Of a DNA stretch of 64,000 nucleotides, positions 121 to 64,000 are shown one piece after another. This stretch comes from Candidatus Bathyarchaeota archaeon (GTDB lineage Archaea > Thermoproteota > Bathyarchaeia > Bathyarchaeales > Bathycorpusculaceae): positions 384,001 to 448,000 of the forward strand of contig CAWHVC010000003.1 in the NCBI GenBank assembly GCA_963832745.1, given 5' to 3'. Below the pieces are notes generated by a model. The model made no database searches, had not been told where the DNA came from, and worked only from the letters and a program-made list of their open reading frames with translations. Each line of letters begins with the position of its first letter. Position 1 is the first letter of the stretch. The translations under genes were made by a program, and so were the position numbers.

Positions 121-311
121 CTTGTTGCTTCTCTCAATTTGCCTGTAGTGGTTCCTGCAGTATTTAACAGTATTTTAGTAAGTGACTGTACTATTTTTTA
201 TACACTTTTTTTCCAGCAGCTAAACGTCTGGTTCTTTAATGGTAACAGGTAAAAAGGGTAGTTCTTAAATTGTTGATTTAATCTAATTCTTTCTGCGAGG
301 GGGTAAAGAAG

Positions 312-731
312 TTAACTGAAGGTTCAGCTGATATTTTAAAGGGAACAACTCTTGATATTTACCGGTTAATGCTAAAATCAAACAAGCCTCTGGGCATACG
401 GGAAGTCCAGCGTGCACTAAACTTAAGCAGTCCCTCAGTCGCACAGTATCACCTATCAAAACTTGAGCAAGCAGGACTCGTAAAAAGAGACGTTGGAAAC
501 TATGTTGTAAACCGTGTCCTACTGGAAAGTTTTGTTAAAATCAACCGTTTCCTTATCCCGCGTTACCTGTTTTACTCAGTCTTCTCACTGGTCATTCTTG
601 TTTTGGAACTTACAATTCTTAAACCAACAGTTTTTAGCTCTTACTATTTCTTTTATGCAACAGCAACCTTAGTGTTCTTCCTAATCTTTTGTTACGAAAC
701 CGTTAGAGTATGGCTTAAAGGCAACCTATAA
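312..731 (+). CDS. Membrane-anchored winged-helix (ArsR-like) transcriptional regulator
   Basis: HTH GIREVQRALNLSSPSVAQYHLSKLEQAGLV then two TM helices; frame is open upstream of ATG369 (LTEGSADILKGTTLDIYRLM) with GAGGGGG RBS-like motif at 297-303. Confidence 0.8.
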   Translation, partial: LTEGSADILKGTTLDIYRLMLKSNKPLGIREVQRALNLSSPSVAQYHLSKLEQAGLVKRDVGNYVVNRVLLESFVKINRFLIPRYLFYSVFSLVILVLELTILKPTVFSSYYFFYATATLVFFLIFCYETVRVWLKGNL

Positions 732-863
732 CAAGCCAACTTTAAACAAACTAAAATTTTTGTTAACAATTTTATCATGCTTTTTTTGGTTTCTTTAGGT
801 AAGGGTTAAATGTCAAGGTCGCACATGCATACTTTAATAATCCGTAAAGGTTTGGTTAAAGAA

Positions 864-1478
864 ATGCAATCCGCTAAATCAGGAAGGGCATTCGTTTCAG
901 TTGACCCAAGCAAATGCATCGGATGTGGACTTTGCGAGTTTGCTTGCACCTTAGAGAAAGGCGAGCAGGTTTGGAACCCAATCCGTTCAAGAATCCGTGT
1001 AGTCCGCATGGCACCCATGTTCAATTTTGCTTTATCATGCCGCGGATGCGATGACGCAAGATGCGTAAAATCATGCCCCGAAAAAGCAATCACCCAATCA
1101 GAAACTAACCACCTGCTAATTATTGACGAAAAGAAATGCAAAGGCTGCGACTGGTGCGTTCAAGCTTGCCCACGCGGTGGAATCACCATTCACACTGGCA
1201 CAGGGAAAGCTATAGCATGCAACCTCTGCGAAGGCGAACCTAAATGTGTTGAAATATGCCCTGAAGATGCACTAGAAATTGTTAGTTCTGACGAAGAAGC
1301 AGATAAACGCTTTAACGATGCATTGGAAAATCTGCCTGCAGTAACAGAAAAACTGGCGACACAAATAAAGAATCGTGAATGGAAGCCACTGCTTGCTACT
1401 TCAGAGCAACGTACACAAAAAATTACTGAGAAGCTTCAATCCTTAAACAAGAAAGCACTCGAGAAACAACACAAATAA
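864..1478 (+). CDS. 4Fe-4S dicluster ferredoxin-like electron transfer protein (DmsB/HydN-like)
   Basis: Four Cys clusters: CIGCGLCEFAC, CRGC..C..CP, CKGCDWCVQACP, CNLC..C..CP; ATG864 more likely start than 810. Confidence 0.9.
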   Translation: MQSAKSGRAFVSVDPSKCIGCGLCEFACTLEKGEQVWNPIRSRIRVVRMAPMFNFALSCRGCDDARCVKSCPEKAITQSETNHLLIIDEKKCKGCDWCVQACPRGGITIHTGTGKAIACNLCEGEPKCVEICPEDALEIVSSDEEADKRFNDALENLPAVTEKLATQIKNREWKPLLATSEQRTQKITEKLQSLNKKALEKQHK

Positions 1479-9338: not shown

Positions 9339-10121
9339 TTAGGGGCTTTTTGATTCAAACAATGGGTTTTTCTTCATAATTTCATTCCATTCAACAATCT
9401 CTTGCTTAAAAATCGCACATACCGACTTGTAGAACTCTTGGTAGTACTTTGTATAAAGGTCAAGGTATTTTTCAACATGTAGGTCAATTTGAGCATCATA
9501 CTTGAAATTAAAATTATTAATTATATTCAACGATTCCTTTGACCAGCCCTTACCTGTATATCTTCCAGAAGGGCACCAACTTAATAATTGGTCTTTATCT
9601 AACGTGAGGCTGATATTGTAATTCCGATTTTTTAGTGGTGGTATAACATACCAATAACTAGCAAAACATAGCGAATAATGGTCATAATACCGTCTGATAT
9701 CATTAAGGAATTTGACGCTTCCATTATTGCAGAAATTATTTTTTGCTATCTCAAAATCATCAATGGATTTAAGCTTCTCTGAAATCTTTTCATCAATCTC
9801 AATATTTCTCATATGTTGAAGTGCAGAGTATGCATCTGAACAAAAATGCTTGATATGACGATTTAACGCAAGAACTTTCAAGTAATTATCATCATACTCA
9901 TCTTGTGCTTTCTCCATCTCTATTTCCATTAGCTTTTGAAGTTCTTTTAACAAATCCTCTTTATCCAATTGGAGCAAATAACAATCTTCATCCAGTCTAT
10001 CCAGATTGCGTATAATTCTTCCACCAACAGATTGCTCCTTTAATTTTTGCCAATCCAAGTATTTTATTTTACCCACTCTCAGTTTTAGCAATGGTCTAGT
10101 TATTGGCTTAAAGTTTTTCAT
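9339..10121 (-). CDS. Hypothetical protein, HEPN-like candidate RNase
   Basis: Helical protein with Rx4H motif (IRRYYDHY). Confidence 0.55.
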   Translation of the reverse strand: MKNFKPITRPLLKLRVGKIKYLDWQKLKEQSVGGRIIRNLDRLDEDCYLLQLDKEDLLKELQKLMEIEMEKAQDEYDDNYLKVLALNRHIKHFCSDAYSALQHMRNIEIDEKISEKLKSIDDFEIAKNNFCNNGSVKFLNDIRRYYDHYSLCFASYWYVIPPLKNRNYNISLTLDKDQLLSWCPSGRYTGKGWSKESLNIINNFNFKYDAQIDLHVEKYLDLYTKYYQEFYKSVCAIFKQEIVEWNEIMKKNPLFESKSP

Positions 10122-10174
10122 AATTTAGATTCTACGGATAATTTTTTTAAGCAATTTAGCAGTATATTGCGTTT

Positions 10175-10897
10175 ATGTCTAATGCTCTCAAAGGTCTATG
10201 TGTAGCTGTACTTATTGTTGGCATAGTGCTATCGGCTACAATGTTTATAGTCAAATTTCCAGTAGCCACTCAAGTTCCCTACCAAGTACAAGTACCGTAT
10301 GAAGCAACAGAAACAAAGACTCAAAACTTAGACCACCGAGAGAGCTACCAAATACAAAGCGGACATCTTGCTTACTCGAACTTTGACCTTGAAGCTGGAA
10401 AAAGTTTAGTGGTCACTTGGCAGGTTGATAATACAGTATCTGTGTATATAACAACCCCTTCACAATTTGACTCAGCAAAACTATTGGGTATCCCTACCTC
10501 TTCTTTGTCAAGAGAGCAAATGACAGGTTCAGGCACGTTATCTTATCAGATACCTAGTGCTGGAACATACTATGTTATAATCAGCCCCTATATGAGTGAT
10601 GTAAACGTGGCTTCTTACAAATCTGACCTACAATGGCAAGAGCAAGTAACTAAGTATAGAAGTGAAACAAGATACCAATATGAAACAATTTACACATCAA
10701 GCACTTTTGGAATCAATTTAGGTGTAAGCATTCTAGTCTTAGGCTGTATCTTAACACCGCTAAGCTTTGTGAATATTAAGCCGATGATTAAGAAAACAAA
10801 AAATTTTAACAAAGTAACTTGTGATTACTGCAATACAACCTATGACAAACATATAGACAAGTGTCCTCATTGTGGAGCAAGAAATAAAGTCCTTTAG
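10175..10897 (+). CDS. Membrane protein with extracellular beta-sandwich and C-terminal zinc ribbon
   Basis: N- and C-terminal TM helices; GTYYVII beta-strand; CDYC..CPHC. Confidence 0.8.
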   Translation: MSNALKGLCVAVLIVGIVLSATMFIVKFPVATQVPYQVQVPYEATETKTQNLDHRESYQIQSGHLAYSNFDLEAGKSLVVTWQVDNTVSVYITTPSQFDSAKLLGIPTSSLSREQMTGSGTLSYQIPSAGTYYVIISPYMSDVNVASYKSDLQWQEQVTKYRSETRYQYETIYTSSTFGINLGVSILVLGCILTPLSFVNIKPMIKKTKNFNKVTCDYCNTTYDKHIDKCPHCGARNKVL

Positions 10898-10953
10898 GTT
10901 TGTTTCTTTTTTGCTAAGTCTTTTATGTTACAACCTAACAAACAAAGCACGAC

Positions 10954-11691
10954 ATGACAGCAGATTCAAGTGAAGACATCTTTCGGATTCAATTAGGGCA
11001 AAATAGCATTAAATTGCTTCAATTCAGAAAAAATAAGTCATCTGGTGATATTTACGGGTGGTTTGGTATTCCAGACGTGGGTTTGCATATTTCGGGGCAT
11101 ATGCCAAAACCACCGCTCCACCCATATGCACATTTACACCTAAAGAGCGATATTTTGGGAATTCATGAAGATATTGCTGATTTTGACCCTACTGATGTAG
11201 CGGATTATTATCGAGATTTTGCAGAGGATTTTATTAATGACTTCTATGAACCAGAACCAGATGAATCTATAACGATGCTTCCCATGACAGCACATACTTT
11301 TACATCTGGAAGCTTTAATGTGCCACGTCTGTTCCAAGCGATGACAGGAACATATTACCGCACAAATGGCAATAGGCTCTCTAGACTTTTGACTAATAAC
11401 CCATCTCTTTTAGATACCATTGGAATTTCAGACAATGGGATAGTATTACCTATTGATACAAATGTCATCTTTGAAATTCCATTCAAGTCACGCTTCAATT
11501 ACTTCAATAAATTACTTTTAGGTAAACCGCTAAGTTCATTTGCCGACCCGATAACAAAAGCATTAGAAATTGTTCAACGTAATAGCCCAAACTCTTTAAC
11601 TAAATGGATTCCACCTTCAACTGTTGGAAGCTTCATTCAAGAAACCCAAGCTATTATCAAAAAAGCAAAACCGCAAATAATCGATTACTAA
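10954..11691 (+). CDS. Hypothetical protein
   Basis: 245-aa ORF; His-rich HxSGH..HPYAHLH segment. Confidence 0.7.
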   Translation: MTADSSEDIFRIQLGQNSIKLLQFRKNKSSGDIYGWFGIPDVGLHISGHMPKPPLHPYAHLHLKSDILGIHEDIADFDPTDVADYYRDFAEDFINDFYEPEPDESITMLPMTAHTFTSGSFNVPRLFQAMTGTYYRTNGNRLSRLLTNNPSLLDTIGISDNGIVLPIDTNVIFEIPFKSRFNYFNKLLLGKPLSSFADPITKALEIVQRNSPNSLTKWIPPSTVGSFIQETQAIIKKAKPQIIDY

Positions 11692-11750
11692 AAACTCAAA
11701 AGAACAACTTGCAATTAAATGCTTAAACAAAAAGGAAAAGAAAGGAATAT

Positions 11751-12488
11751 TCAAGATACTGGTTGAATGCTGTAGCTTTTTGCACTGTAGGGTGCTTCTT
11801 TACCGCATTCGGGACAGAATTTACTATTGTTTACAACCGTTCCACAGTGCAAACAAATCTTTGTTATTGGCTGACTTTGGTTATTGAGTGCATCTGGTTT
11901 AAATGATACTGCCAGTATCCCACCAATTAACCCAAATATTGTTCCAAGCCCCATTATCGAGGAAATAATGATTGTGTTACCCCATTTTGTATGTTCTGCG
12001 GGATTAGCCATCATCTTTCTAGCTGAATGTATTATAATTACTGCTGAAAGCAAACACAACAAACCTATCCCCAAATATATTCCGAAATAGGCAAAATAGG
12101 GGTCTGTAACATAAGTTCCTGTTCCATAAGGAGTAGTAACCCACCAACGTCTTACTCCACCCATTCCAGTATTTGATGGAATAGAATAAAACAAATTAGC
12201 ACAATATACGCCAAATGCAATAAGAACTAAAGAAATGAAAGTCCCTATGGAGCCGCCAACCATTGAAAAATTGTAGGCACTTGTTGGTTTGCTCATAATC
12301 ATTTGATTACGTAGATTTTCTTCAGTGGTTGATTTATTCGCTTGAGTAGTTGGGATAGAAATAACCGCCTTCCTACAGGCTTTACAAAGATATTTCCCGT
12401 TAAATTCTGGATGCTCTGTTTGAGACATCCATTTAGTACCATCAAAGGTTCTTTTTTCGCATCTTGTACACTTAGGCATTGAAACCAT
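11751..12488 (-). CDS. Zinc-ribbon membrane protein
   Basis: N-terminal CTRC..CKAC, 3-4 TM helices, C-terminal CLHC..CPEC. Confidence 0.8.
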   Translation of the reverse strand: MVSMPKCTRCEKRTFDGTKWMSQTEHPEFNGKYLCKACRKAVISIPTTQANKSTTEENLRNQMIMSKPTSAYNFSMVGGSIGTFISLVLIAFGVYCANLFYSIPSNTGMGGVRRWWVTTPYGTGTYVTDPYFAYFGIYLGIGLLCLLSAVIIIHSARKMMANPAEHTKWGNTIIISSIMGLGTIFGLIGGILAVSFKPDALNNQSQPITKICLHCGTVVNNSKFCPECGKEAPYSAKSYSIQPVS

Positions 12489-12544
12489 TCCTTTTTATTC
12501 AAAACGTATTATCGATAAGTAGACAGCTTATTCTTTAAAAGTTT

Positions 12545-12611
12545 GTGCTACCAATGGGTGCTACTCCATTGGTGCTCGAAAAAACACTTGTTCAACATAA
12601 GGTGCTACCAA
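12545..12611. promoter_or_regulatory. GTGCT(A) direct repeats upstream of AbrB-like gene
   Basis: GTGCTACCAA 12545, GGTGCTACTCC 12557, GGTGCTC 12571, GGTGCTACCAA 12601. Confidence 0.55.
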
Positions 12612-12625
12612 ATTAGGGACACAAC

Positions 12626-12814
12626 ATGATTGAAGGCGAAGGTAAAATGATAAATCGCCCAACACAAACCGGCGGAAAAACCTACGACAAATACTTCATT
12701 TACATACCAATCGAAGTCGCCAGAGATACTGCATTCCCATTTAAACCTCAAGAAAAATTAAAAATAAAAATTGACATAAACAACAGAATGCTAACAGTAA
12801 AAAAAATTGAATGA
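12626..12814 (+). CDS. AbrB/SpoVT-like swapped-hairpin DNA-binding protein
   Basis: KYFIYIPIEVARDTAFPFKPQEKLKIKI pattern; clearly similar to 33404-33601. Confidence 0.75.
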   Translation: MIEGEGKMINRPTQTGGKTYDKYFIYIPIEVARDTAFPFKPQEKLKIKIDINNRMLTVKKIE

Positions 12815-12895
12815 CAGCTACTCCATAATTTTCAATTGAACGAGCAAATATGTTTTGAGTGCTTTTAAGTTAGCCACAGTAAGCGTCCATCTACA

Positions 12896-13351
12896 GTGAA
12901 AAAGATGTCTGTTAATTATACTTCGAAAAGTGCCCTATTAAAAGAAGTCTTAACAAGAGCCAACAAAAAAGAAAAACAAGAATACGAAAACATACTCAAA
13001 AAACAAATTGTTTTAGGCGAAAGATTTGACACCATTTTGAAGGAATGGCAAACCATCAGAGACAAACAAAACCACAAATATGGCCCACAAGAACCAAAGA
13101 AAAGCCAGAAATCCACAGAAGAAATGTCTACAGATGAATTCATGCGAGAAATGAAAGAGCATAACAAGTATTTTCATGACTCCCTTGAATGGAACACTGA
13201 GCAAATTGCAACCAACAATAGGCAGATAGAAAAAATCAGTCAATTAATAGAGTTAACAACTGAGTTCATATCCCTTGAAAGTGAAGTAAAATGGCTTTTA
13301 CTTTCTATAGCTCTCAGAACGCAACCAAATTTGCTGAGATATATAAAATAA
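12896..13351 (+). CDS. Hypothetical coiled-coil protein
   Basis: 151-aa K/E-rich helical ORF. Confidence 0.6.
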   Translation: MKKMSVNYTSKSALLKEVLTRANKKEKQEYENILKKQIVLGERFDTILKEWQTIRDKQNHKYGPQEPKKSQKSTEEMSTDEFMREMKEHNKYFHDSLEWNTEQIATNNRQIEKISQLIELTTEFISLESEVKWLLLSIALRTQPNLLRYIK

Positions 13352-13415
13352 CGATAAGAAATATACTATGTGACATATTAAATGTCTAACATCCATAATG
13401 CAGTCGCTGACTAAA

Positions 13416-13765
13416 CAAATACCCCGTATATTATGCAAATACCCCCGCAATTGTAAAGAGCCAGAGGGGTTTTATTTTACATATATAAAAACTTCCTTTT
13501 AAATAGCCAGACAATTGAAGAATTGACTCCACAGTTGACCGTATGAGCCACTGATTGTCCATGTTAGGAACTGATTTCAAACAACCGGTTCCAGAATCAG
13601 TGTCATGGAAAAGCATGGACTATTCGGTTTCAGGAACTGAATAACCAATAGAAATGATACAACCATATAAGGGTAAAATTAGAAGTTAATTAATAAATAA
13701 TAACATTATGTCAATTTAGTTACTTTTATAGGGGCATTTTTGCCCAAAATCGGTGAATCAGTTCC
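13416..13765. repeat. Candidate replication origin of the element (short direct/inverted repeats plus AT-rich tract)
   Basis: CAAATACCCC x2 (13416, 13436); GGAACTGA(TT) 13567, 13633 and inverted 13756; CACTGATT/AATCAGTG and GTCCATG/CATGGAC inverted pairs. Confidence 0.45.
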
Positions 13766-13778
13766 AGCAAGTATTGGC

Positions 13779-14162
13779 TTAAAACTCATAATAACTGCCT
13801 AGTTCTTTTGCTACTTGTTGCCAAATCTGCTTATTGCTAACTTTCCGTTTAACACCTTTTTCTGCTCTTTCACTTTCCAAACGACCTCTTGTATGATTAA
13901 AGAGTATTTTTGTAGATGAAGTGAATAGAGACCGCCCTGTTAGCTCAAGTTCAAATTTAAGGTCTGTTTTTTCCAGAATAAGTGGTAAATCGGTGATGAT
14001 GGCAACTATAGCTTTCTGTTTGATTATGTTCTTCATTTGTCTGTGTTTCTTTATTTTGTCATTCTGTAATCTTTCTCTTTCGATATCTGTTAGTATTCCT
14101 CTGTAGGGCTTTCTTGAGTGCTTATCGTTTTCTATGGAAATTGTCACGTTGAGGCACGACAT
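13779..14162 (-). CDS. Hypothetical basic protein (possible DNA-binding regulator)
   Basis: RGILTDIERERL motif, highly basic; divergent from replication genes. Confidence 0.6.
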   Translation of the reverse strand: MSCLNVTISIENDKHSRKPYRGILTDIERERLQNDKIKKHRQMKNIIKQKAIVAIITDLPLILEKTDLKFELELTGRSLFTSSTKILFNHTRGRLESERAEKGVKRKVSNKQIWQQVAKELGSYYEF

Positions 14163-14203
14163 AAGTTGTAAGCAGTTTGATGCTATATATAATATACTAA
14201 AAT

Positions 14204-15785
14204 ATGGTGGAAATATTGACAGAAGAATTAGAAGATAGCGGTTCTATTCCGCTAATAAGTACCGATGGATTGACTCCATCAAATAATAATCAAGTAAAAG
14301 ATAAAAAAGAAAAGCCTAAGATAGTTTCAAAGTCACTTTTATTCATTGGCGATGATATTGAAAACTATAGTAAACGTGGACTTTATGAAGCTGTCTTTTT
14401 TAATAGTCAACCCTATTTCTTGCGATGCTTTAACGCTGACCGAACAGGTAATAGTCCTAAACTGTTTGCCCTTCAAAAATCAATTTCAACTTATGAGGAA
14501 TCGACAAGCGGTAATCCTCAAAAAGTTATGTTTGCTCCCAAAGTTACTTCACTTGAACTGTTACCATTCGATTTTGGAGAAACAGAATTAGAATCTGTCT
14601 TTGAGGGTAACAAATACGCAATCCCAACAACTCAGGAACTGTTTGACCGCATTTATGCCATGATTAAACTGTATGCAGACATCTCTTCTGATTGGTTAAA
14701 TGTGAGCTCATTGATGGTTTTGATGAGTTACGAACAGCACAAGTTTAACTGGCTTCCATATCTGGGCATATTTGGCGATACTGGAAGTGGAAAGAGTGTC
14801 CTTACTGAGATTCTAAGTTATTTGTGTTACCGGTGTGGTTATTTCTTTGAAACAAATAGTGCTGACATCTATCAATATCTGAGCGAATATGAGGATACAA
14901 TCCCTTGTTTGGCTGAAGATGAAACTCAGGGACTAGAAAAAGATAGTGAAAAAATTAAAATTTACAAATCAGGTAGTTCAAAAAGTGGTAAGGTAATACG
15001 AATCCTACAAACCCCAAACGGTCGAAAGTTATTATCCTATCCAACATATTGCTTCAAAATCATAACAGGCGAACAAACTCCAACAGTTAAGGGGCTGAAT
15101 GAACGTATACTATGCATTCCTTCCTCCAAAGGCAAACCCTCAAAACATTGGTACGATAGAACCGATAAAGATACCAACGAAATTAAACGGTTAAAATGGG
15201 ATTTACTCAAGTGGCGCATGGCCAATTATTGTAATAGCTATCAGAATGAAATCAACTCTACGAGTAGGATAGAAGATAACCTAAAGCCCCTAGAAGTGTT
15301 GGCGAAAGGATTATCGATATCATCAGACCTTGAAAAATGGGCAAAAGAAACAATACAAAAAAGCGAAAGCGAAAAGAAATCGACCCTTGAAGGCTGTACC
15401 GTTGAAGCCGTGTATACAATAATAAACAGAGGACTATTTGCAAAGGAAACTGTACTTCAAGGTCAATTAGCTTCAAAACTCTTCATTAGCTTTGATACTA
15501 TTTGGGAACAAATTAAAACAATCACTCTAGGCAACAATGGATAATGAAAAATTGCAGACCGTTGAGTTTGGTGAGATTACTAAGAACAAGATTGGTAGAA
15601 TTCTAAGCAATATTTTTGCTAGTAAATCAGTTTCAAAAGCGGATGCCACGAATAATAAAGTTAGGTGCCGTTCATTCGAAATAGAGATGTTACTAAGGGT
15701 TATAAGCAATTATTTTGATGAACCTGAAACTGAACGATTGAACCTAAAAATTCAGCAAAGTAACGGCGAAGAAGCAGAACTCTAA
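14204..15785 (+). CDS. P-loop ATPase / putative replicative helicase with C-terminal wHTH; split by a +1 frameshift near 15533
   Basis: Walker A GDTGSGKS, Walker B LAEDE, Arg finger-like LNERIL; ORF 15537-15785 continues it if one base is removed (TITLG-TMDNEKL). Confidence 0.7.
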
Positions 15786-58080: not shown

Positions 58081-58356
58081 TTAAACTAGGGCTAGTTTTC
58101 GTAGCCTTATTCCATCTTTGTGGCGCATGTAACCGCATTTTTTACATTTCAAACGTAAAGTTTGTTTTTTGGTTGTTTTGGCGAATTCATGTTGTAGTGG
58201 ATATTTTTGTCCACCGTAGCCTTTCTTTTCTCTATCGTGGTGGCGTTCGCCTTTAGCCATGGCTCTACGTTTTCCAGCCTTGTATAGGGTTACATTGTGA
58301 GCTTCATGATCTTTACATTTTGGACAGTAAGTCTTGACTTCTTTAGGAACGTTCAC
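58081..58356 (-). CDS. rpl44e: Ribosomal protein L44e
   Basis: TYCPKC..H, GYGGQ, KTTKK..LKCKKC; start GTG58356. Confidence 0.97.
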   Translation of the reverse strand: MNVPKEVKTYCPKCKDHEAHNVTLYKAGKRRAMAKGERHHDREKKGYGGQKYPLQHEFAKTTKKQTLRLKCKKCGYMRHKDGIRLRKLALV

Positions 58357-58473
58357 TTTGTTCACTACCAGCTTTAGCTTTGCATAAAAGTAACGCACAC
58401 ATTCTTATACTTTTTCGCTGACGAATTTTAAAAAGTAACTCACAGGTAACACTTTAACTATCAATTTTTTGTT

Positions 58474-58580
58474 TAGAAGTTGTTGCCGCAGAGCCTCTTA
58501 GCACAACAACAACCAACAGACTTAGTTAACGTTTGTGTTTTGGGCTTTGCTGTTTTAGGGGGTTTCAGGCTGGTTGTGGC
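58474..58580 (+). ncRNA. Candidate structured RNA (long irregular hairpin)
   Basis: TAGAA/TTCTA, TGCCGCA/TGTGGCA, GAGCCTCTTAG/TTAGGGGGTTTC, ACAGAC/GTTTGT pairings with several G-U pairs. Confidence 0.3.
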
Positions 58581-58629
58581 ATGTTCTACAAGTATATGGA
58601 TCCAATAATTGTAAATAGCCAACCGTCAT

Positions 58630-59475
58630 ATGGCTGATAGGGAAATGAGCATGTGCGTTGAAGAGATTAAACCAACCTCATGGCAAAAACTTGTTAACGA
58701 ACTTTTCAGGGATTGCGCCTTACAAGAACATATTATGCGGTACCGATCTCTTTACGCATATCGAGGACTTTCCGATAGCACTTATACCTTAAAAACCTCA
58801 CTGATACGCCTGCACGACAAAAACATTAATTGTTGTCAAAAAGTTGAGCCGCATCTTCTTAAAAATTTTATGAAATACTCAAGGGAGGATTATCCAAGCT
58901 ACTCGAAATGGCAATGGCTAGCACTTGCCCAACATCATGGCTTACCAACAAGATTACTAGATTGGACTTTTTCTCCTTTTGTTGCGTTACACTTTGCCAC
59001 TGCCGACAGCAAAAAATTCGATTGCGATGGTGCAGTATGGCTTGTCAACTTCGAAAAAGTGCATAAAGAATTGCCTACAGAAATATATAGCCAATTTGAT
59101 AAAGAAGGGTCATATGTCTTTACCGTCACATCTCTCTCAAAGATAGCAAAAGATTTGGAAACATTTGACAAGATCGATAATAAGGGTAAGCCATTTGCCT
59201 TATTTTTTGAGCCACCATCACTTGATGAACGAATTGTAAATCAATCTGCCTTGCATTCGATTATTTCCAGCCCAACAATGCGATTTGATGAACTCTTAGA
59301 GCAGCATCCTAGTTGGTACAAGAGAATAATTATCCCTAAGCAACTAAAAGCTGAAATTAGAGATAAACTTGACCAAGCGAATATAACAGAAAGGGTTCTA
59401 TTTCCAGGACTAGATGGATTGAGCAGTTGGTTGTCAAGATGGTATGGACCCAGCTATTTAACGAGTTTGCGCTAA
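58630..59475 (+). CDS. FRG domain-containing protein
   Basis: AYRG, AQHHGLPTRLLDWT..P.VALHFA, RIVNQSA, LFPGLDG. Confidence 0.93.
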   Translation: MADREMSMCVEEIKPTSWQKLVNELFRDCALQEHIMRYRSLYAYRGLSDSTYTLKTSLIRLHDKNINCCQKVEPHLLKNFMKYSREDYPSYSKWQWLALAQHHGLPTRLLDWTFSPFVALHFATADSKKFDCDGAVWLVNFEKVHKELPTEIYSQFDKEGSYVFTVTSLSKIAKDLETFDKIDNKGKPFALFFEPPSLDERIVNQSALHSIISSPTMRFDELLEQHPSWYKRIIIPKQLKAEIRDKLDQANITERVLFPGLDGLSSWLSRWYGPSYLTSLR

Positions 59476-59743
59476 GTCTTTCCGTTAGTCCAAATAGTCA
59501 AGTTATCATTTGCCTATACTGCTTAGAATCCTTAACCATAAGGGCTAGAACGCCAGTGACATGATGATACAGACAAAATCCACGACAACACCTAAAATAA
59601 CATTTGACTATCCTGTTGTATAAAATTTACAGATATATCCGACAAGATTGGAGTTACAAAGATATAACCCAAATAGGCAAACACAGCCTAATGCTGCCTT
59701 CATACTTATTTTTTCGGGTTCATAGACTATTAAATGTCTATTT

Positions 59744-60769
59744 GTGAATAACAGTAAAACTAATAATAGAACTAACGTTAATTTGCTTTTTATGAAACTA
59801 AACGAACTTGAGGAGTACTTACAACTAATTTTTGACAAGGAAATTAGCGATCAAAAATACGAGAAAAAGGACCTATTTAATTGCCCTAGCTTAGACCTTA
59901 CAAAACCCATTGTTTACCCTAACGGTCAAACCCTTGTGGATTTATTTTCGAACGTTAGCAATGAAATAGAACTAAATAAAAGGGTTCTCGAGAGACTTAA
60001 GAAAGAAATCATCAAAGCCCCAGAAGAGCAGAGTGCATCGGTGATGACTTATACATTTTATTGTGGAATTTCCCCTCTTTGTTTTTTTGCCTTAATAGAA
60101 TCAGGTTTTGTGAATGAAGCCATAGATTGTCTAAATCTAAGAATACAAACCTCGTATGGTATAACTAGATTAGTAAATATATATTTAGAAAAAAACATCT
60201 TTAATTACGATCAGTTAAACCATCTGGCAAAGCGATATAAAGACCCAGATTATTCCAGAAAGATCTTGGATAAAAAGTTTAACATTTTTAAAAAACAGCT
60301 AAAAACTATCAATTTAGAGATAAATCAGGACAAAATAATCGTTTCACAAAAAATTAAAAACTACGGATTCAGCGATAAATATAATGAGTATCTCAATTTG
60401 ATAGATGAATTTATTCGAACTGATGCTTCAAAAGTAATGAATGCAGGTATGATTAGCACTCTCAGATCATTCATGGCTGAGTTAATTACTGACATTGCAA
60501 ATAGAATCGCCTTTTACGAAAAAGAGACAATTCCAAAGTATGAGGGGCATCAAGAGTTGGGCAATATTAGAATTTACTTAAAAAAGAAGTTAGAACTGAG
60601 TGAAAAAGACCACAAGCTCATCAATGCTATTGTCGAAGTCTTACATGAAGAGGGCGCACATTCTATGATGACAAACAAAGAATATTTTCGGCTTTCAAAG
60701 AATATTGTGATAGAAGTAGCCCTTTTTATATTATTAAAATATGAGCAGAAATACGGAATAGCGAAATAG
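59744..60769 (+). CDS. Hypothetical protein, C-terminus Abi_C/HEPN-like
   Basis: AT-rich ORF (likely start ATG ~59792); helical C-domain LRSFMAE...HEEGAH. Confidence 0.55.
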   Translation: MNNSKTNNRTNVNLLFMKLNELEEYLQLIFDKEISDQKYEKKDLFNCPSLDLTKPIVYPNGQTLVDLFSNVSNEIELNKRVLERLKKEIIKAPEEQSASVMTYTFYCGISPLCFFALIESGFVNEAIDCLNLRIQTSYGITRLVNIYLEKNIFNYDQLNHLAKRYKDPDYSRKILDKKFNIFKKQLKTINLEINQDKIIVSQKIKNYGFSDKYNEYLNLIDEFIRTDASKVMNAGMISTLRSFMAELITDIANRIAFYEKETIPKYEGHQELGNIRIYLKKKLELSEKDHKLINAIVEVLHEEGAHSMMTNKEYFRLSKNIVIEVALFILLKYEQKYGIAK

Positions 60770-60908
60770 TAGTCCTTAAGTTACAAGGTAACTCGCTCAT
60801 AAGTGGTATCTACGATACATCTCAAGTTAATTTTCTCCTTACAGAGCGACGATAAGTTACTATATGCTCGCTTACTATAAGAGCAAAATAAAGTGATTTA
60901 AAAAAGTT

Positions 60909-62333
60909 TTAATCTCCTCGTGGGATTGTCAAAAAGAATGGTTCTGGCCCCATTTCTGCTGTTGCATAAACAGCTAAAGCCATAGCCCAAAAAGCGTCGT
61001 CGTTTGTTCCTTGTGGGTGGTGATACCCGATTGTGCCGTCTTTGTTTAGGCTATAGCGTTCAACGTTAAGTTCTGTGCAGATTTCTCCCCTGTAAGGTCT
61101 TTCCCAGTGAAGAAGGGGATAAAAGAGTTGGCGGTTTGCCATGCGTTGTTTGAGCAGGCTTGCCATTTCGCTTTTTCGTGGTACACTAAAGTTTACTCCT
61201 TCCGCGTTTCGGATGCCTGCGGCTTCCATGTCGGCGATTATGCTTGGGCCTTCGCGTGTGAAGTCTACGCGGATTTTTTGGAATCCGTGCCAGCGATCTT
61301 GCAGGGCTTTAAGGTAACCTAAAACGGTGGCGTATATGGTGGGTTGCTGGAAGATTTTGAGGTGCCGCAGAAACAGTCGCTCGTCAGCTTTTTCTATTAC
61401 GGCAAGGGCGGTGTAGTCGCGGGTTTGAGCCAAATCCAACCCAACAAAGAATGTTCCTCGGCGTTCGGTTTCAGGGTTGTATTCCTGCAGGTCTTCTCCG
61501 CAAGTGGCTATGGTGCCTATGCATTGGGCGATTTGGCTTTGGGTTAACCATACGTCTTGGTCTTCTGCCCATTCCGCCTGCATCTCACGGCGCCAACGGA
61601 TCGGGTCATCACCCATCTGGGTTTTGATTTTCTGTATTATGCCCTGCTTTAACGGTCCATTGGGTTCCATGGCTTGTTCGACGGTTACGTGTGAGGTTTT
61701 GTAGTCGGCAAAGTCTTTGTGGTTAAAGATTTTGAAAAAGACGCTGTCGGTGTGCCATGGTGTACTGCTGCAGACGAATTTGCCATCTGTTGTGCCAAGA
61801 GTGTAGAGAATGGCGTCGTATAGTTCTTGGTCGTTGGCGACAAAATTGAATTCGTCAGCGTAGACCACGTGGAGGGTTGGTCCTCGGATGGTTTCGGGGT
61901 TGTTTGGGAATGCTTCGATTGTGCTGCCGTTGGTGAAGTGGATTTGGGTGCGTTGAGGCTTAAACGCGTAACCCGAAGGCAGTTTGTGGGTGAATGCTGC
62001 GATGCGTGAGAGGATTCGTTTGGTTTGCCGCCAACTTGGACCTACTATGCCGACTGCGCTGTCTGGATGCGTTACTGCATACCATAATAGCAGGGCAGCT
62101 ACAATGAAGCTTTTGCCACTTTGGCGGCTCCACCGTGCCGCTGTAAACTGGTTACCCACAAATAGGCGAATAAACTGTTCTTGATAACTAAACGGCGAGA
62201 ACCCCAAGAGTTCCCTGCAGAAAACTATGGGGTCACTGCTGAGCAACTCTGTTTTTTCTTGCGCCAACTCTTCGGCTAGCTGGTTATTCTGTTGGAGCTT
62301 GTGCCACCGTGGTAGGAACTGGTTGGGGCGCAG
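60909..62333 (-). CDS. terL: Terminase large subunit (ATPase plus RNase H-like nuclease)
   Basis: YQ adenine motif, RQSGKS Walker A, VYADE Walker B, SSTP motif III, GLDLA..D, VD, NDD; frame is open to CTG62333 (ORF track start 62267). Confidence 0.92.
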   Translation of the reverse strand: MRPNQFLPRWHKLQQNNQLAEELAQEKTELLSSDPIVFCRELLGFSPFSYQEQFIRLFVGNQFTAARWSRQSGKSFIVAALLLWYAVTHPDSAVGIVGPSWRQTKRILSRIAAFTHKLPSGYAFKPQRTQIHFTNGSTIEAFPNNPETIRGPTLHVVYADEFNFVANDQELYDAILYTLGTTDGKFVCSSTPWHTDSVFFKIFNHKDFADYKTSHVTVEQAMEPNGPLKQGIIQKIKTQMGDDPIRWRREMQAEWAEDQDVWLTQSQIAQCIGTIATCGEDLQEYNPETERRGTFFVGLDLAQTRDYTALAVIEKADERLFLRHLKIFQQPTIYATVLGYLKALQDRWHGFQKIRVDFTREGPSIIADMEAAGIRNAEGVNFSVPRKSEMASLLKQRMANRQLFYPLLHWERPYRGEICTELNVERYSLNKDGTIGYHHPQGTNDDAFWAMALAVYATAEMGPEPFFLTIPRGD

Positions 62334-62751
62334 GGTTTTGGCTTATGTTTTGCAGGAGCGCGGCATATTTTGCCTCCATATCGTTTAGTTTGGCTTCGAT
62401 TTCTCGGTAATTGATGTAGTCAGCTAAGATTTCCTTGTAGGCGCGGGCTAAGGTGGCGACGACTTGGAGCCGCTGCACCTCGGTTTTGCTTAAGCCTGGT
62501 TCAGATGCGGCTTCTAAGGCTCCGGCAAGTTTTCTGAGAGTTTCTTCTACGCTTGGCAACTCTTCGGGCAACGGCAATTGTTTCTCGGTTGCTTGCCCAC
62601 TGATTTGCAGTCCAAGACGTTGACTTTTAACAAGAACCGCAGTTGGCTGCCTACACAACGCTGCAGCTATAACGTCAAGAGGCGTATTTGCCAGAACCAG
62701 TTTTCTTAGTTGGGCTTCTTCTTGAGGCGTCCAAGGTAATCCACGAGTCAC
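62284..62751 (-). CDS. HTH plus helical protein, candidate terminase small subunit
   Basis: WTPQEEAQLRKL..LDVIAAAL.R..AV..K..RLGL HTH, then coiled helices; GGTGA RBS; directly upstream of terL. Confidence 0.65.
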   Translation of the reverse strand: MTRGLPWTPQEEAQLRKLVLANTPLDVIAAALCRQPTAVLVKSQRLGLQISGQATEKQLPLPEELPSVEETLRKLAGALEAASEPGLSKTEVQRLQVVATLARAYKEILADYINYREIEAKLNDMEAKYAALLQNISQNPAPQPVPTTVAQAPTE

Positions 62752-62919
62752 ATTTTCACCTGTACAACTGGAAACGCAAGGTTGCTTTTGGAGTTTTTTA
62801 TCGTTAAAAAAGGTGCATAATTTAATGTCTTTTGTAAACTAGTTAAATGTTAAAGCTTTTTTTAGAGCACATTTTTAAGTTTCTTACCGTTATGGGAAAC
62901 TTTTTTTATACAGACAACT

Positions 62920-63274: not shown

Positions 63275-64000
63275 ATGCCTAACGTTTTTGAGCAAATCAG
63301 AAATCAACCCAGCATGCTCTTGCCATTGTTACCACTGATAGCATTTGTTATTCCTCTGCTTGGATTATACCTATTCAATCCTGTCGAACCCTTCATAGGC
63401 ATAACATCAGATTATACAGCTCAAAAAACGTTCGAGTCAATGTGGAAAGGCAGAACCTTTGAATTATTCTTTGTTTGGTTAATCGGCCTTGAACTTATTT
63501 TAGGCTGGGAAAACTTTAAAGAAACAAAATTAAAAAAACTTGCAGCCCCACGCACCATAGCGCTCATAGTAGCTTTAATCCTTCCAACACTTTACGTTTT
63601 GGCATCATACACTTTTGGATTAAATGACACCATCGTAAATTGGGCGCTTTCAAACAATGTTCAGGGCGGCTGGGCTACAACAATGCCCGTATCCATTGAA
63701 TACTTAGCCTTTGCAGCCGTCTTCACGGCAGTAGCGTTTTTGATGTTTGGCAAAAAAGGCTTAATCAACTATGCCTTACCAGCGTTTTTCATGATAATGG
63801 TTGGAGTAATATACATCATTGACAACGTGTACCCGTACGGCCAGTTTACGTTGTTCCAGTTTTTTGTTCCAACCGCAGCCGCAACAGCCGCAGCATTCTT
63901 CAACCTAATGGGATACAACACAGTTTTAACTCAACAGACAGACATGGTCCATGGAACAATGCCAGTCTTAACTGTTTCAGGCCCAGCAGGAGTCACACAG
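63275..64000 (+). CDS. Exosortase/archaeosortase family protein (partial, runs off window end)
   Basis: Multi-TM ORF, FESMWKGRTF and IDNVYPYG..FQ..VP motifs resemble thaumarchaeosortase-type proteins; catalytic Cys not within window. Confidence 0.65.
   Translation, partial: MPNVFEQIRNQPSMLLPLLPLIAFVIPLLGLYLFNPVEPFIGITSDYTAQKTFESMWKGRTFELFFVWLIGLELILGWENFKETKLKKLAAPRTIALIVALILPTLYVLASYTFGLNDTIVNWALSNNVQGGWATTMPVSIEYLAFAAVFTAVAFLMFGKKGLINYALPAFFMIMVGVIYIIDNVYPYGQFTLFQFFVPTAAATAAAFFNLMGYNTVLTQQTDMVHGTMPVLTVSGPAGVTQ

Follow-up and report, generated by a model that had tools for sequence, protein, structure and literature searches.

A stretch of 64,000 nucleotides from the genome of a Candidatus Bathyarchaeota archaeon (GenBank assembly GCA_963832745.1, contig CAWHVC010000003.1, positions 384,001 to 448,000; hereafter the window) carries on its minus strand two genes that together resemble the terminase of tailed viruses: a large subunit, TerL, and a small partner, S1. 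The pair is very probably derived from a virus and is now a resident, vertically inherited module of the chromosome that is kept by selection. Terminases count among the hallmark genes of tailed viruses; what is new here is capsid-less terminases as a lineage, with a single origin, several paralogues per genome, fixed sites and constraint at the level of housekeeping genes. The preserved capsid-less pairs suggest a new use for a viral motor.

Called from canonical starts, the pair consists of two open reading frames (ORFs), 60909-62267 (452 residues, TTG start) and 62284-62751 (155 residues, S1). The larger ORF matches Pfam Terminase_6N (PF03237, 2.6e-18) and, just below the cut-off of 22.6 bits, Terminase_6C (PF17289, 4e-4, 20.8 bits). 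The profile phrog_2 aligns across residues 23-435 (1.2e-36), and phrog_5909 also covers the nuclease part. T4 gp17 (PDB 3ezk) is matched at 3.3e-12, with both Walker regions (A and B) and that of the first nuclease Asp in register; the alignment spans SRQxGK[ST] and the Walker B DE. The motifs are named after those of gp17: K52 (Walker A), D138/E139 (Walker B) and S168-T169-P170 (C-motif) in the ATPase, and D278, D335 and D423/D424 in the RNase H-like nuclease (numbering of the 452-residue ORF). The Walker A R/Q/G/K, the Walker B D-E and the S-T-P coupling motif are invariant in 38/38 aligned family members, as are the four acidic nuclease residues (D311, D368, D456 and D457 in the family listing). 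The large ORF is a T4-type large terminase with both an ATPase and a nuclease domain, as the initial annotation had read from the motifs. Its domain order is that of gp17 (PDB 3ezk, 3cpe). In contrast to gp17, from which it is distant (E 3e-12), it is ~100 residues shorter, and gp17 works with a portal, none of which is encoded here.

The initial annotation also described TerL as intact, with a probable CTG start at 62333; neither point holds. Comparison with orthologues places the conserved frame of 484 codons at 60909..62366 (ATG at 62366, stop at 60909-60911). Family frames run to 481-490 codons, and their first ~33 residues (MPRS.K.KA+T.RPNQ...), which overlap the end of S1, are conserved. 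In the window, codon 8 of this frame (62343..62345, minus strand) reads TAA where three orthologous loci have AAA (Lys), so the reading frame is not complete; the class-wide search described below separately reports ‘1 TAA’ for this copy. The base change also converts K to I in the overlapping S1 frame. Contigs of relatives (~88-90% alike) carry the AAA base at 62345 in 4/4 sequencing runs. Among the sequencing runs searched, none contained more than 0.09 of the sequence words and no RNA run was listed; reads of the source strain were not found, and the TAA may be an assembly error. Downstream of it the frame is open and all catalytic motifs are present, and the CTG was proposed as a start because of this open remainder; it only follows the stop. 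Restart at the CTG or at the TTG (62267) would retain every TerL domain, the 452-residue ORF being a possible restart product that lacks 33 N-terminal residues. Type-2 members of the family (see below) naturally start ~24 residues into the type-1 frame, and a shortened TerL product could therefore still fold.

S1 (62284..62751, minus strand) has a GTG start preceded by GGTGA 7 nt upstream, and it shares 83 nt at its 3' end with the conserved start of TerL. It lies directly upstream of TerL, in the same orientation, in 51/84 genome loci and 69/80 viral loci. No Pfam or NCBIfam family matches it; residues 5-52 match phrog_323 (‘transcription regulator’, 6.5e-6). The AlphaFold model (pLDDT 79) has an N-terminal three-helix helix-turn-helix (HTH), a linker that carries an invariant LPxELPSVEE motif, a helix and a further helix of 50 residues. 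In this predicted model residues 1-45 superpose on the GcrA DNA-binding domain (TM 0.90, root-mean-square deviation 1.1 Å), and the HTH also resembles Tc3 and Myb domains. Foldseek gave no whole-protein match (best E 0.076) and no solved small terminase among the 50 matches listed. In the ESM Atlas, S1 groups with unnamed proteins of ~150 residues from Uroviricota and Bathyarchaeota, and a Terminase_5 cluster at 0.81 similarity is the sole pointer to a small terminase (TerS). A prediction of the S1–TerL complex gave a score of 0.00, which is no answer and is evidence for neither side. The modelled architecture and the position of S1 fit a small terminase. The overlap, the gene order and a modelled HTH are in keeping with the earlier description of an HTH-helical TerS-like gene; a match to a described TerS family was not found.

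The same annotation called the pair an orphan and proposed that its copies and neighbourhoods be counted. Its context is indeed free of capsid genes, but the pair is not unique. The genome of the window (99% complete, 5 contigs) holds four S1–TerL loci, with TerL at C3:444912 (the window), C3:49350 (71% amino acid identity to the window's), C3:179684 (60%) and C4:141750-143091 (frameshifted); an isolated 42-residue C-terminal TerL fragment lies at C5:458686-458811. S1 copies stand beside the TerLs, and S1-only fragments also occur. S1 and TerL are the only homology among the four loci at DNA and protein level, and a phrog_2 search of the genome returned these four and one weak unrelated match. 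Among 41 sampled relatives (own genome counted) 32 have matches, 20 of the 24 in the genus among them, and many have 2-10. A class-wide search, in which at most three candidates were scored per genome, gave matches at E<=1e-100 in 84/401 genomes (family 68/147, genus 32/56); stops were counted by hand in 10/145 listed matches. The hosts are Bathyarchaeia by their named records, and the nearest are ‘Bathy-6’ metagenome-assembled genomes (MAGs) with TerLs 93-96% identical. One further record, L088 (Candidatus Limnocylindrales bacterium), carries S1–TerL at 52% identity on a contig binned as Chloroflexota and is basal in the family; in an otherwise Bathyarchaeia-only family it is either mis-binned or the product of transfer.

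The phylogeny of TerL separates a clade of chromosomal pairs from viral TerLs. Trees of 68 TerLs (IQ-TREE) and of 145 TerLs (FastTree) both recover, with support of 100, a 37-member clade that includes the window copy; all are chromosomal loci with S1 only (in two of the 37 no S1 was called). None of 77 TerLs from IMG/VR, taken from the best 80 of 159 relatives there, falls within it, and its nearest neighbours are sequences from virus contexts. At 32/37 clade loci none of the other 28 recurrent gene clusters of viral contigs lies within 10 kb. The window copy and its three syntenic orthologues belong to a subclade of 8 members. A 10-member subclade, mostly beside UbiD/aconitase X, includes the copy that has UbiD as its neighbour. 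The third intact copy of the genome groups apart, with viral contigs, and therefore represents a second, independent capture. The initial annotation would have given way if the closest homologues lay in complete proviruses and this copy were a single recent deletion remnant under relaxed selection. Instead, the closest homologues (67-96% identical) are capsid-less pairs at fixed sites and under purifying selection; homologues in virus-like contigs are more distant (53-69%) and lie outside the clade of the window.

The 80 IMG/VR loci examined (L127-L206, 53-69% identity) show the context from which such a pair may have come. S1 is present in 69, a tail protein in 60, an ABC ATPase in 59, c3 in 56 and a tube protein in 34 (c3 and similar labels denote recurrent gene clusters). 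In the representative L135 (9-12895) the order is major head protein (phrog_267, 5.4e-14) - ... - tube - tail - c3 - c7 - S1 - TerL - ABC. Contigs with capsid, tail and S1–TerL genes are, by their gene content, tailed viruses or proviruses. In the L135-type group S1–TerL closes the structural operon on its 3' side, downstream of head, tube and tail, and does not precede a portal.

Clustering of the ORFs that flank 84 genome loci resulted in two arrangements. In type 1, where TerL is >=57% identical to the query, S1–TerL stands alone. Type 2 (TerL ~50% identical) has the order c3 - c7/c6 - c2 - TerL - ABC-type ATPase, and some of its loci sit behind a block of tail genes (tube protein PF18906, 1.4e-16, and a tail protein). 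The gene 3' of type-2 TerL encodes an ABC-type ATPase of 480-540 residues with a GNAT-like part (ABC_tran 1.3e-15, phrog_293 5.5e-42). We had considered the second gene behind type-2 TerL as a portal and rejected this in view of that assignment. The ATPase also lies behind TerL in 59/80 IMG/VR loci (e.g. L097:11296-12783, L135:11453-12895) and has weak PADLOC matches (mad3/mad8 and PtuA); as a conserved neighbour of a terminase it is unusual. Recurrent type-1 flanks are host genes, namely UbiD, aconitase X and an amino-acid kinase at one locus and, at another, the archaeosortase-like neighbourhood of the window, which is syntenic in four genomes. The proposed count of copies and neighbourhoods thus yields four copies here, 2-10 matches in many relatives and host genes as the recurrent surroundings of type-1 pairs.

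Selection on the pair is purifying. By the Nei–Gojobori method the ratio of non-synonymous to synonymous divergence (dN/dS) at the locus of the window (clade A, 4 genomes) is 0.058 for TerL and 0.138 for S1, compared with 0.02-0.13 for 16 flanking host genes; dS of TerL is 0.59 versus 0.32-1.30 in flanking genes. At the UbiD locus (clade B, 7 genomes) the values are 0.080 (TerL), 0.153 (S1), 0.064 (UbiD) and 0.085 (aconitase X, AcnX). The dN/dS check that the initial annotation had suggested therefore places TerL, at 0.058 and 0.080, with its flanking host genes. Among 54 type-1 loci TerL is uninterrupted in 41 and broken in 11, and two lie at contig ends. TerL and S1 are thus constrained, yet losable.

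The pair is GC-richer than its surroundings, as noted earlier: 0.50-0.51 over 61000-62749, with flanks of 0.31-0.36 and 0.33-0.40 in a genome of 0.41-0.42. Across type-1 loci the median is 0.47 for the pairs versus 0.42 and 0.41 for the flanks, and the pair exceeds its upstream flank in 20/22 loci and its downstream flank in 22/22. Viral loci (0.48-0.50) are like the chromosomal pairs. The virus-like composition of the pair is unameliorated, although synonymous divergence shows long residence in genomes of 0.41-0.42.

The machinery with which a terminase would work is not detectable nearby or elsewhere in the genome. The interval between rpl44e and the archaeosortase-like gene is ~4.9 kb and holds five ORFs, none of which matches an integrase, portal, capsid, replication or primase family in Pfam, PHROGs or NCBIfam, in line with the earlier view of an island without portal, capsid or integrase. 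No tRNA lies within 24 kb of the pair, and no convincing direct or attachment (att) repeats bracket the island or the pair. The locus lacks the capsid, portal and tail genes beside the terminase, the integrase and the att repeats of an integrated tailed provirus, and the island lacks the integrase, replication gene, regulator and att sites of phage satellites of the PICI, P4 and PLE types. A search of the 99%-complete genome for portal and capsid genes, as had been proposed, found none: there is no match to capsid PF05065 and phrog_267, portal phrog_9232 and PF04860, or tail tube PF18906. The portal model detects the provirus of a relative at 1.7e-34; a phrog_1650 capsid search of the genome was uninformative, its control having matched nowhere. 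Searches with tblastn for the portal and capsid of relatives' proviruses, the tail block and the recurrent viral-contig clusters found nothing apart from decayed fragments of leader and ABC genes, which lie at C2:230236-232025, C1:402925-403702 and C1:410033-411813. Nor does the genome hold the cluster of head and tail genes of a gene transfer agent (GTA). These results support the statement that the pair is not a normal provirus.

The three exceptions are decayed pieces of viral modules. That on C2 retains c3, c7 and c2, followed by a 237-residue fragment of the ABC ATPase; TerL is gone, whereas relatives have it between c2 and ABC, and its c3 is 96% identical to that of a sister genome. The remnant at C1:402925-403702 consists of c7 and an ABC fragment, and that at C1:410033-411813 of c3-c7-c106 with S1 fragments and without TerL.

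The DNA behind TerL is variable. In the orthologous loci both flanks are common, and homology breaks off at the TerL stop codon and is found again 2.4-5 kb further on; the intervening stretch differs in each genome and holds PIN/MazE-type pairs, a 983-residue gene, eight small genes or, in the window, an FRG gene. In 22 loci 42/115 downstream ORFs are common to loci versus 60/107 upstream. We place the variable DNA on the TerL side because fewer downstream ORFs are common to loci and because homology ends at the TerL stop. In 8/84 genome loci there are 9 extra TerL 3' fragments (last ~30-80 codons, ~90-240 nt), 539-2489 nt downstream of the full-length TerL, always on the same strand and behind inserted cassettes (L034:11361-12127, L046:3250-4049, L050:2173-3910, L040, L057, L061, L063 and L073). 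At five aligned loci (6 fragments) the homologous stretch is the final ~90-100 nt of TerL, up to the stop codon; the repeated end includes the HDD...ALAVYA coding part. The cassettes hold a PIN gene in the closest orthologue of the window and a PDC-S70 pair (1.7e-37) elsewhere; PDC-S01 (4.9e-103 in a homologue) lies within the L061 interval, and one locus has two cassettes and two fragments in series. This pattern is the footprint expected if incoming DNA were to recombine at a site in the TerL 3' end and bring a replacement end with it. With small cassettes inserting at the 3' end of TerL, variable DNA would begin exactly at its stop. The cassettes showed no recombinase. The corresponding ~100 nt in the window (60909..61010, minus strand) have no second copy there, the single match being TerL's own end, and the five matches in the genome are the four genes and the isolated fragment on contig C5.

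The explanation that we regard as best is held, as a whole and with its mechanism, with less than even confidence; its descriptive part is strongly supported. A single ancestral S1–TerL unit very probably came from tailed Bathyarchaeia viruses with the order capsid - tail - c3 - c7 - S1 - TerL - ABC ATPase, shed all but S1 and TerL, and then reached several chromosomal sites. A vestige of 31 residues of the ABC gene directly 3' of TerL at one clade-B locus fits such an origin, by deletion from S1–TerL–ABC. The pair has, very probably, since been inherited with its host in the Bathy-6 family, under purifying selection as strong as that on its housekeeping neighbours, and the window copy gained its codon-8 stop very recently. 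The most likely single mechanism, which we offer tentatively, is that the pair acts in trans on packaging by infecting related viruses. Conservation of the whole motor argues for translocation. This depends on a portal, for which an infecting virus would be the only source, and viruses of the related group are present in the databases; action in trans on their packaging is therefore favoured. The N-terminal HTH of S1 would bind DNA and assemble TerL, TerL would retain its translocating ATPase and its nuclease, and the module would work with the procapsids of infecting viruses of the related group. The packaging of the virus might then be diverted or spoiled, which would protect the host, or chromosomal DNA might be loaded, from the pair onwards into the variable DNA beside it. 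The diverged paralogues of a genome, several in number, would then match several virus lineages. We speculate, with considerable doubt, that a battery of chromosomal terminases, two-gene S1–TerL units that all descend from one captured viral module, both sabotages the packaging of infecting viruses and launches directional packaging of the neighbouring cassette-accepting DNA, which begins at the TerL stop. If true, this would be a host-owned device for lateral transduction and interference that has no capsid genes of its own.

Several observations weigh against this explanation. The function proposed for the pair is read from its genes. Neither in sequence nor in fold does S1 match a small terminase that has been solved or curated. 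The genome holds no provirus of the related type, and any capsid must therefore come from outside. The early stop of the window copy, the frameshift in a second copy of the same genome and the 11 broken copies among 52 scorable loci mean that the function is dispensable. The dS values of clade B are near saturation. PADLOC-positive proteins number ~5-8 on each side of the pair (115 downstream and 107 upstream proteins, 22 loci). The claim that the clade is confined to chromosomes rests on the best 80 of 159 IMG/VR relatives, and the clade may not be purely chromosomal, since 5/37 loci have another virus-type gene within 10 kb. In one of the five, L048 (a 4.8-kb contig), a divergently oriented homologue of the major capsid protein (182-1090, minus strand), 55-63% identical to the head protein of the viral group, adjoins S1–TerL of the clade. 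The other exceptions are three loci with small accessory genes and the clade-B locus with the ABC vestige.

The strongest competitor, which we consider unlikely, does away with the capsid: S1 would be a DNA-binding regulator or antitoxin and TerL an ATP-driven nuclease, in a two-gene defence or toxin–antitoxin-like module that cuts invading DNA or, when triggered, that of the host. The overlap of a small HTH gene with a large nuclease gene, the several diverged copies per genome with their frequent loss, purifying selection, and copies near PIN/MazE pairs and FRG/PDC-S15, PDC-S01 and PDC-S70 cassettes would all suit such a module. However, neither TerL nor S1 matches any PADLOC 2.0 family (nor do type-2 TerL and its leader genes), and known defence genes are no commoner downstream than upstream. 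They are equally sparse on both sides, and we rejected the idea that the TerL side is specially rich in them. A simple nuclease would also not need the full motor, which is invariant down to the ATPase coupling motif, and the ABC ATPase that accompanied TerL in the viral ancestor has not been retained. A landing-pad role as the main reason for keeping TerL, with its 3' end an attachment site for integrating cassettes or viruses that bring their own copy of the end, would account for the nine TerL-end fragments behind cassettes and for variable DNA that starts at the TerL stop. We judge it improbable: a site of ~100 nt cannot account for selection along the whole 484-codon frame and on S1, no recombinase is seen in the cassettes, and the window has no such repeat.

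Two further readings concern the origin and persistence of the pairs, and both are very improbable. That they are inert, slowly decaying relics of several old proviruses, as was concluded for NitKor-E1 in Thaumarchaeota (see below), would suit the decayed module pieces in the same genome, the broken copies (11/52 scorable, the window's included) and the virus-like GC. It is already disfavoured by dN/dS values of 0.06-0.08 at dS >=0.6, equal to those of housekeeping neighbours, by the 41/52 intact copies, and by a clade that is monophyletic, chromosome-only and syntenic; moreover, the same two genes survive each time, and the capsid, tail and ABC genes never do. The least probable of all is an autonomous selfish cassette of 1.9 kb that moves itself, for example via breaks made by TerL. 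The unit does have sharp borders in unrelated contexts, from ~80 nt 5' of S1 to the TerL stop, and several copies per genome. However, the copies within a genome are only 60-71% identical with saturated synonymous sites, which indicates that no transposition took place recently; the pair is bordered by neither terminal repeats nor target duplications, and within a clade the site stays the same from species to species.

No description of a capsid-less terminase lineage was found in the literature searched, and NitKor-E1, a cryptic integrated element of Ca. Nitrosopumilus koreensis AR1, is the closest printed case. According to the parts of its description consulted, TerS and TerL are the sole tailed-virus genes of that element and are accompanied by VapBC, a restriction enzyme and a tyrosine integrase (PMC6563490). 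Its authors call the function ‘enigmatic’ and regard the element as probably a relic; they also state that terminases had not been seen before in non-viral elements (Krupovic et al. 2019; PMC6563490). The likeness rests on this published gene content: a terminase pair as the only viral genes, a short island, and neighbours of toxin–antitoxin or defence type (FRG/PDC-S15 here, PIN and MazE-type genes in the orthologues). Unlike NitKor-E1, which is a single element, the present pairs form a clade with several paralogues per genome, without integrase or att repeats, at fixed syntenic sites and under measured purifying selection. The tailed viruses of Bathyarchaeia in IMG/VR share with the pair the same S1 and TerL families (53-69%), the same gene overlap and the same GC; they also carry the major head protein, tube, tail, c3 and c7 genes and the ABC ATPase behind TerL, without which the pair of the window stands. 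A survey of Bathyarchaeia viruses, as far as consulted, describes complete viruses (10.1101/2023.08.24.554615), and the sections seen of the Bathy-6 genome paper mention only one ordinary provirus, of 46.8 kb (PMC11697101). Canonical proviruses of the same genus (L114, L116) also have the order small gene - TerL. Their TerLs are only 35-36% identical to that of the window, and genes for a portal (phrog_9232, 4.1e-34) and a major head protein (phrog_1650, 1.1e-15) come next; these proviruses are the sister group of the whole S1–TerL family.

GTAs and the ‘domesticated’ head-tail elements of Thaumarchaeota likewise consist of virus-derived packaging genes kept by a host without replication or integration genes. 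In the portions of the reports consulted, however, they keep a full set of head (and tail) genes (PMC6563490, PMC5797428), whereas the genome of the window has no detectable capsid, portal or tube gene.

Phage satellites, such as those with PICI small terminases and the Vibrio PLE, are chromosomal elements that exploit or spoil the packaging of a helper. They are excisable islands with integrase, replication and regulatory genes, and usually carry TerS or an inhibitor, not TerL. The resemblance is one of idea only, a chromosomal element that uses terminase-related proteins to hijack or disrupt the packaging of a helper; the present pair has no integrase, replication or regulatory genes and does carry TerL.

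Roughly half of the genomes sampled from this archaeal family, which is widespread in sediments and soils, carry the lineage. The role of a terminase without a capsid becomes testable, as intact copies, related viruses and enrichment cultures exist. Action in trans, if true, would be a new route of gene transfer or of virus interference in archaea; if the nuclease reading were true, a viral motor would have become a new defence or addiction module. The cassettes inserted at the end of TerL also hint at a system of site-specific insertion that has not been described.

The initial annotation placed the pair in an island of less than 5 kb bounded by rpl44e and an archaeosortase gene. The size and the rpl44e boundary stand (58081..58398, minus strand; PF00935, 8e-27; syntenic in L034-L036). 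The archaeosortase label is weak, with TIGR04297 matching at 24 bits (2.4e-5) against a cut-off of 250 on a partial ORF of 242 residues (63275..64000, plus strand); this putative membrane protein gene flanks the pair on the S1 side and is also syntenic in L034-L036. Only the 2.4 kb from the TerL stop to rpl44e is variable (58517..60936, a homology gap at oriented positions 11815-14236 relative to L034-L036), whereas in four genomes the pair keeps its syntenic place beside the archaeosortase-like gene. The stretch homologous to L034, L035 and L036 covers oriented positions 9919-11830 (window 60922-62833) and begins in a conserved leader 5' of S1 (62752..62831, minus strand). In three orthologous loci unrelated genes occupy the variable segment. 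In the window it holds, both on the plus strand, an FRG-domain gene (58630-59475; FRG 3.1e-28), which matches the PADLOC candidate defence family PDC-S15 (2e-48), and a gene for 341 residues of GC 0.31 (59744-60769), which matches nothing in Pfam, PHROGs, NCBIfam or PADLOC; an ORF of 73 residues completes the island. Elsewhere in the family, two contigs of one MAG (L053 and L054) carry near-identical pairs with the same flanking genes, the result either of recent duplication or of assembly redundancy.

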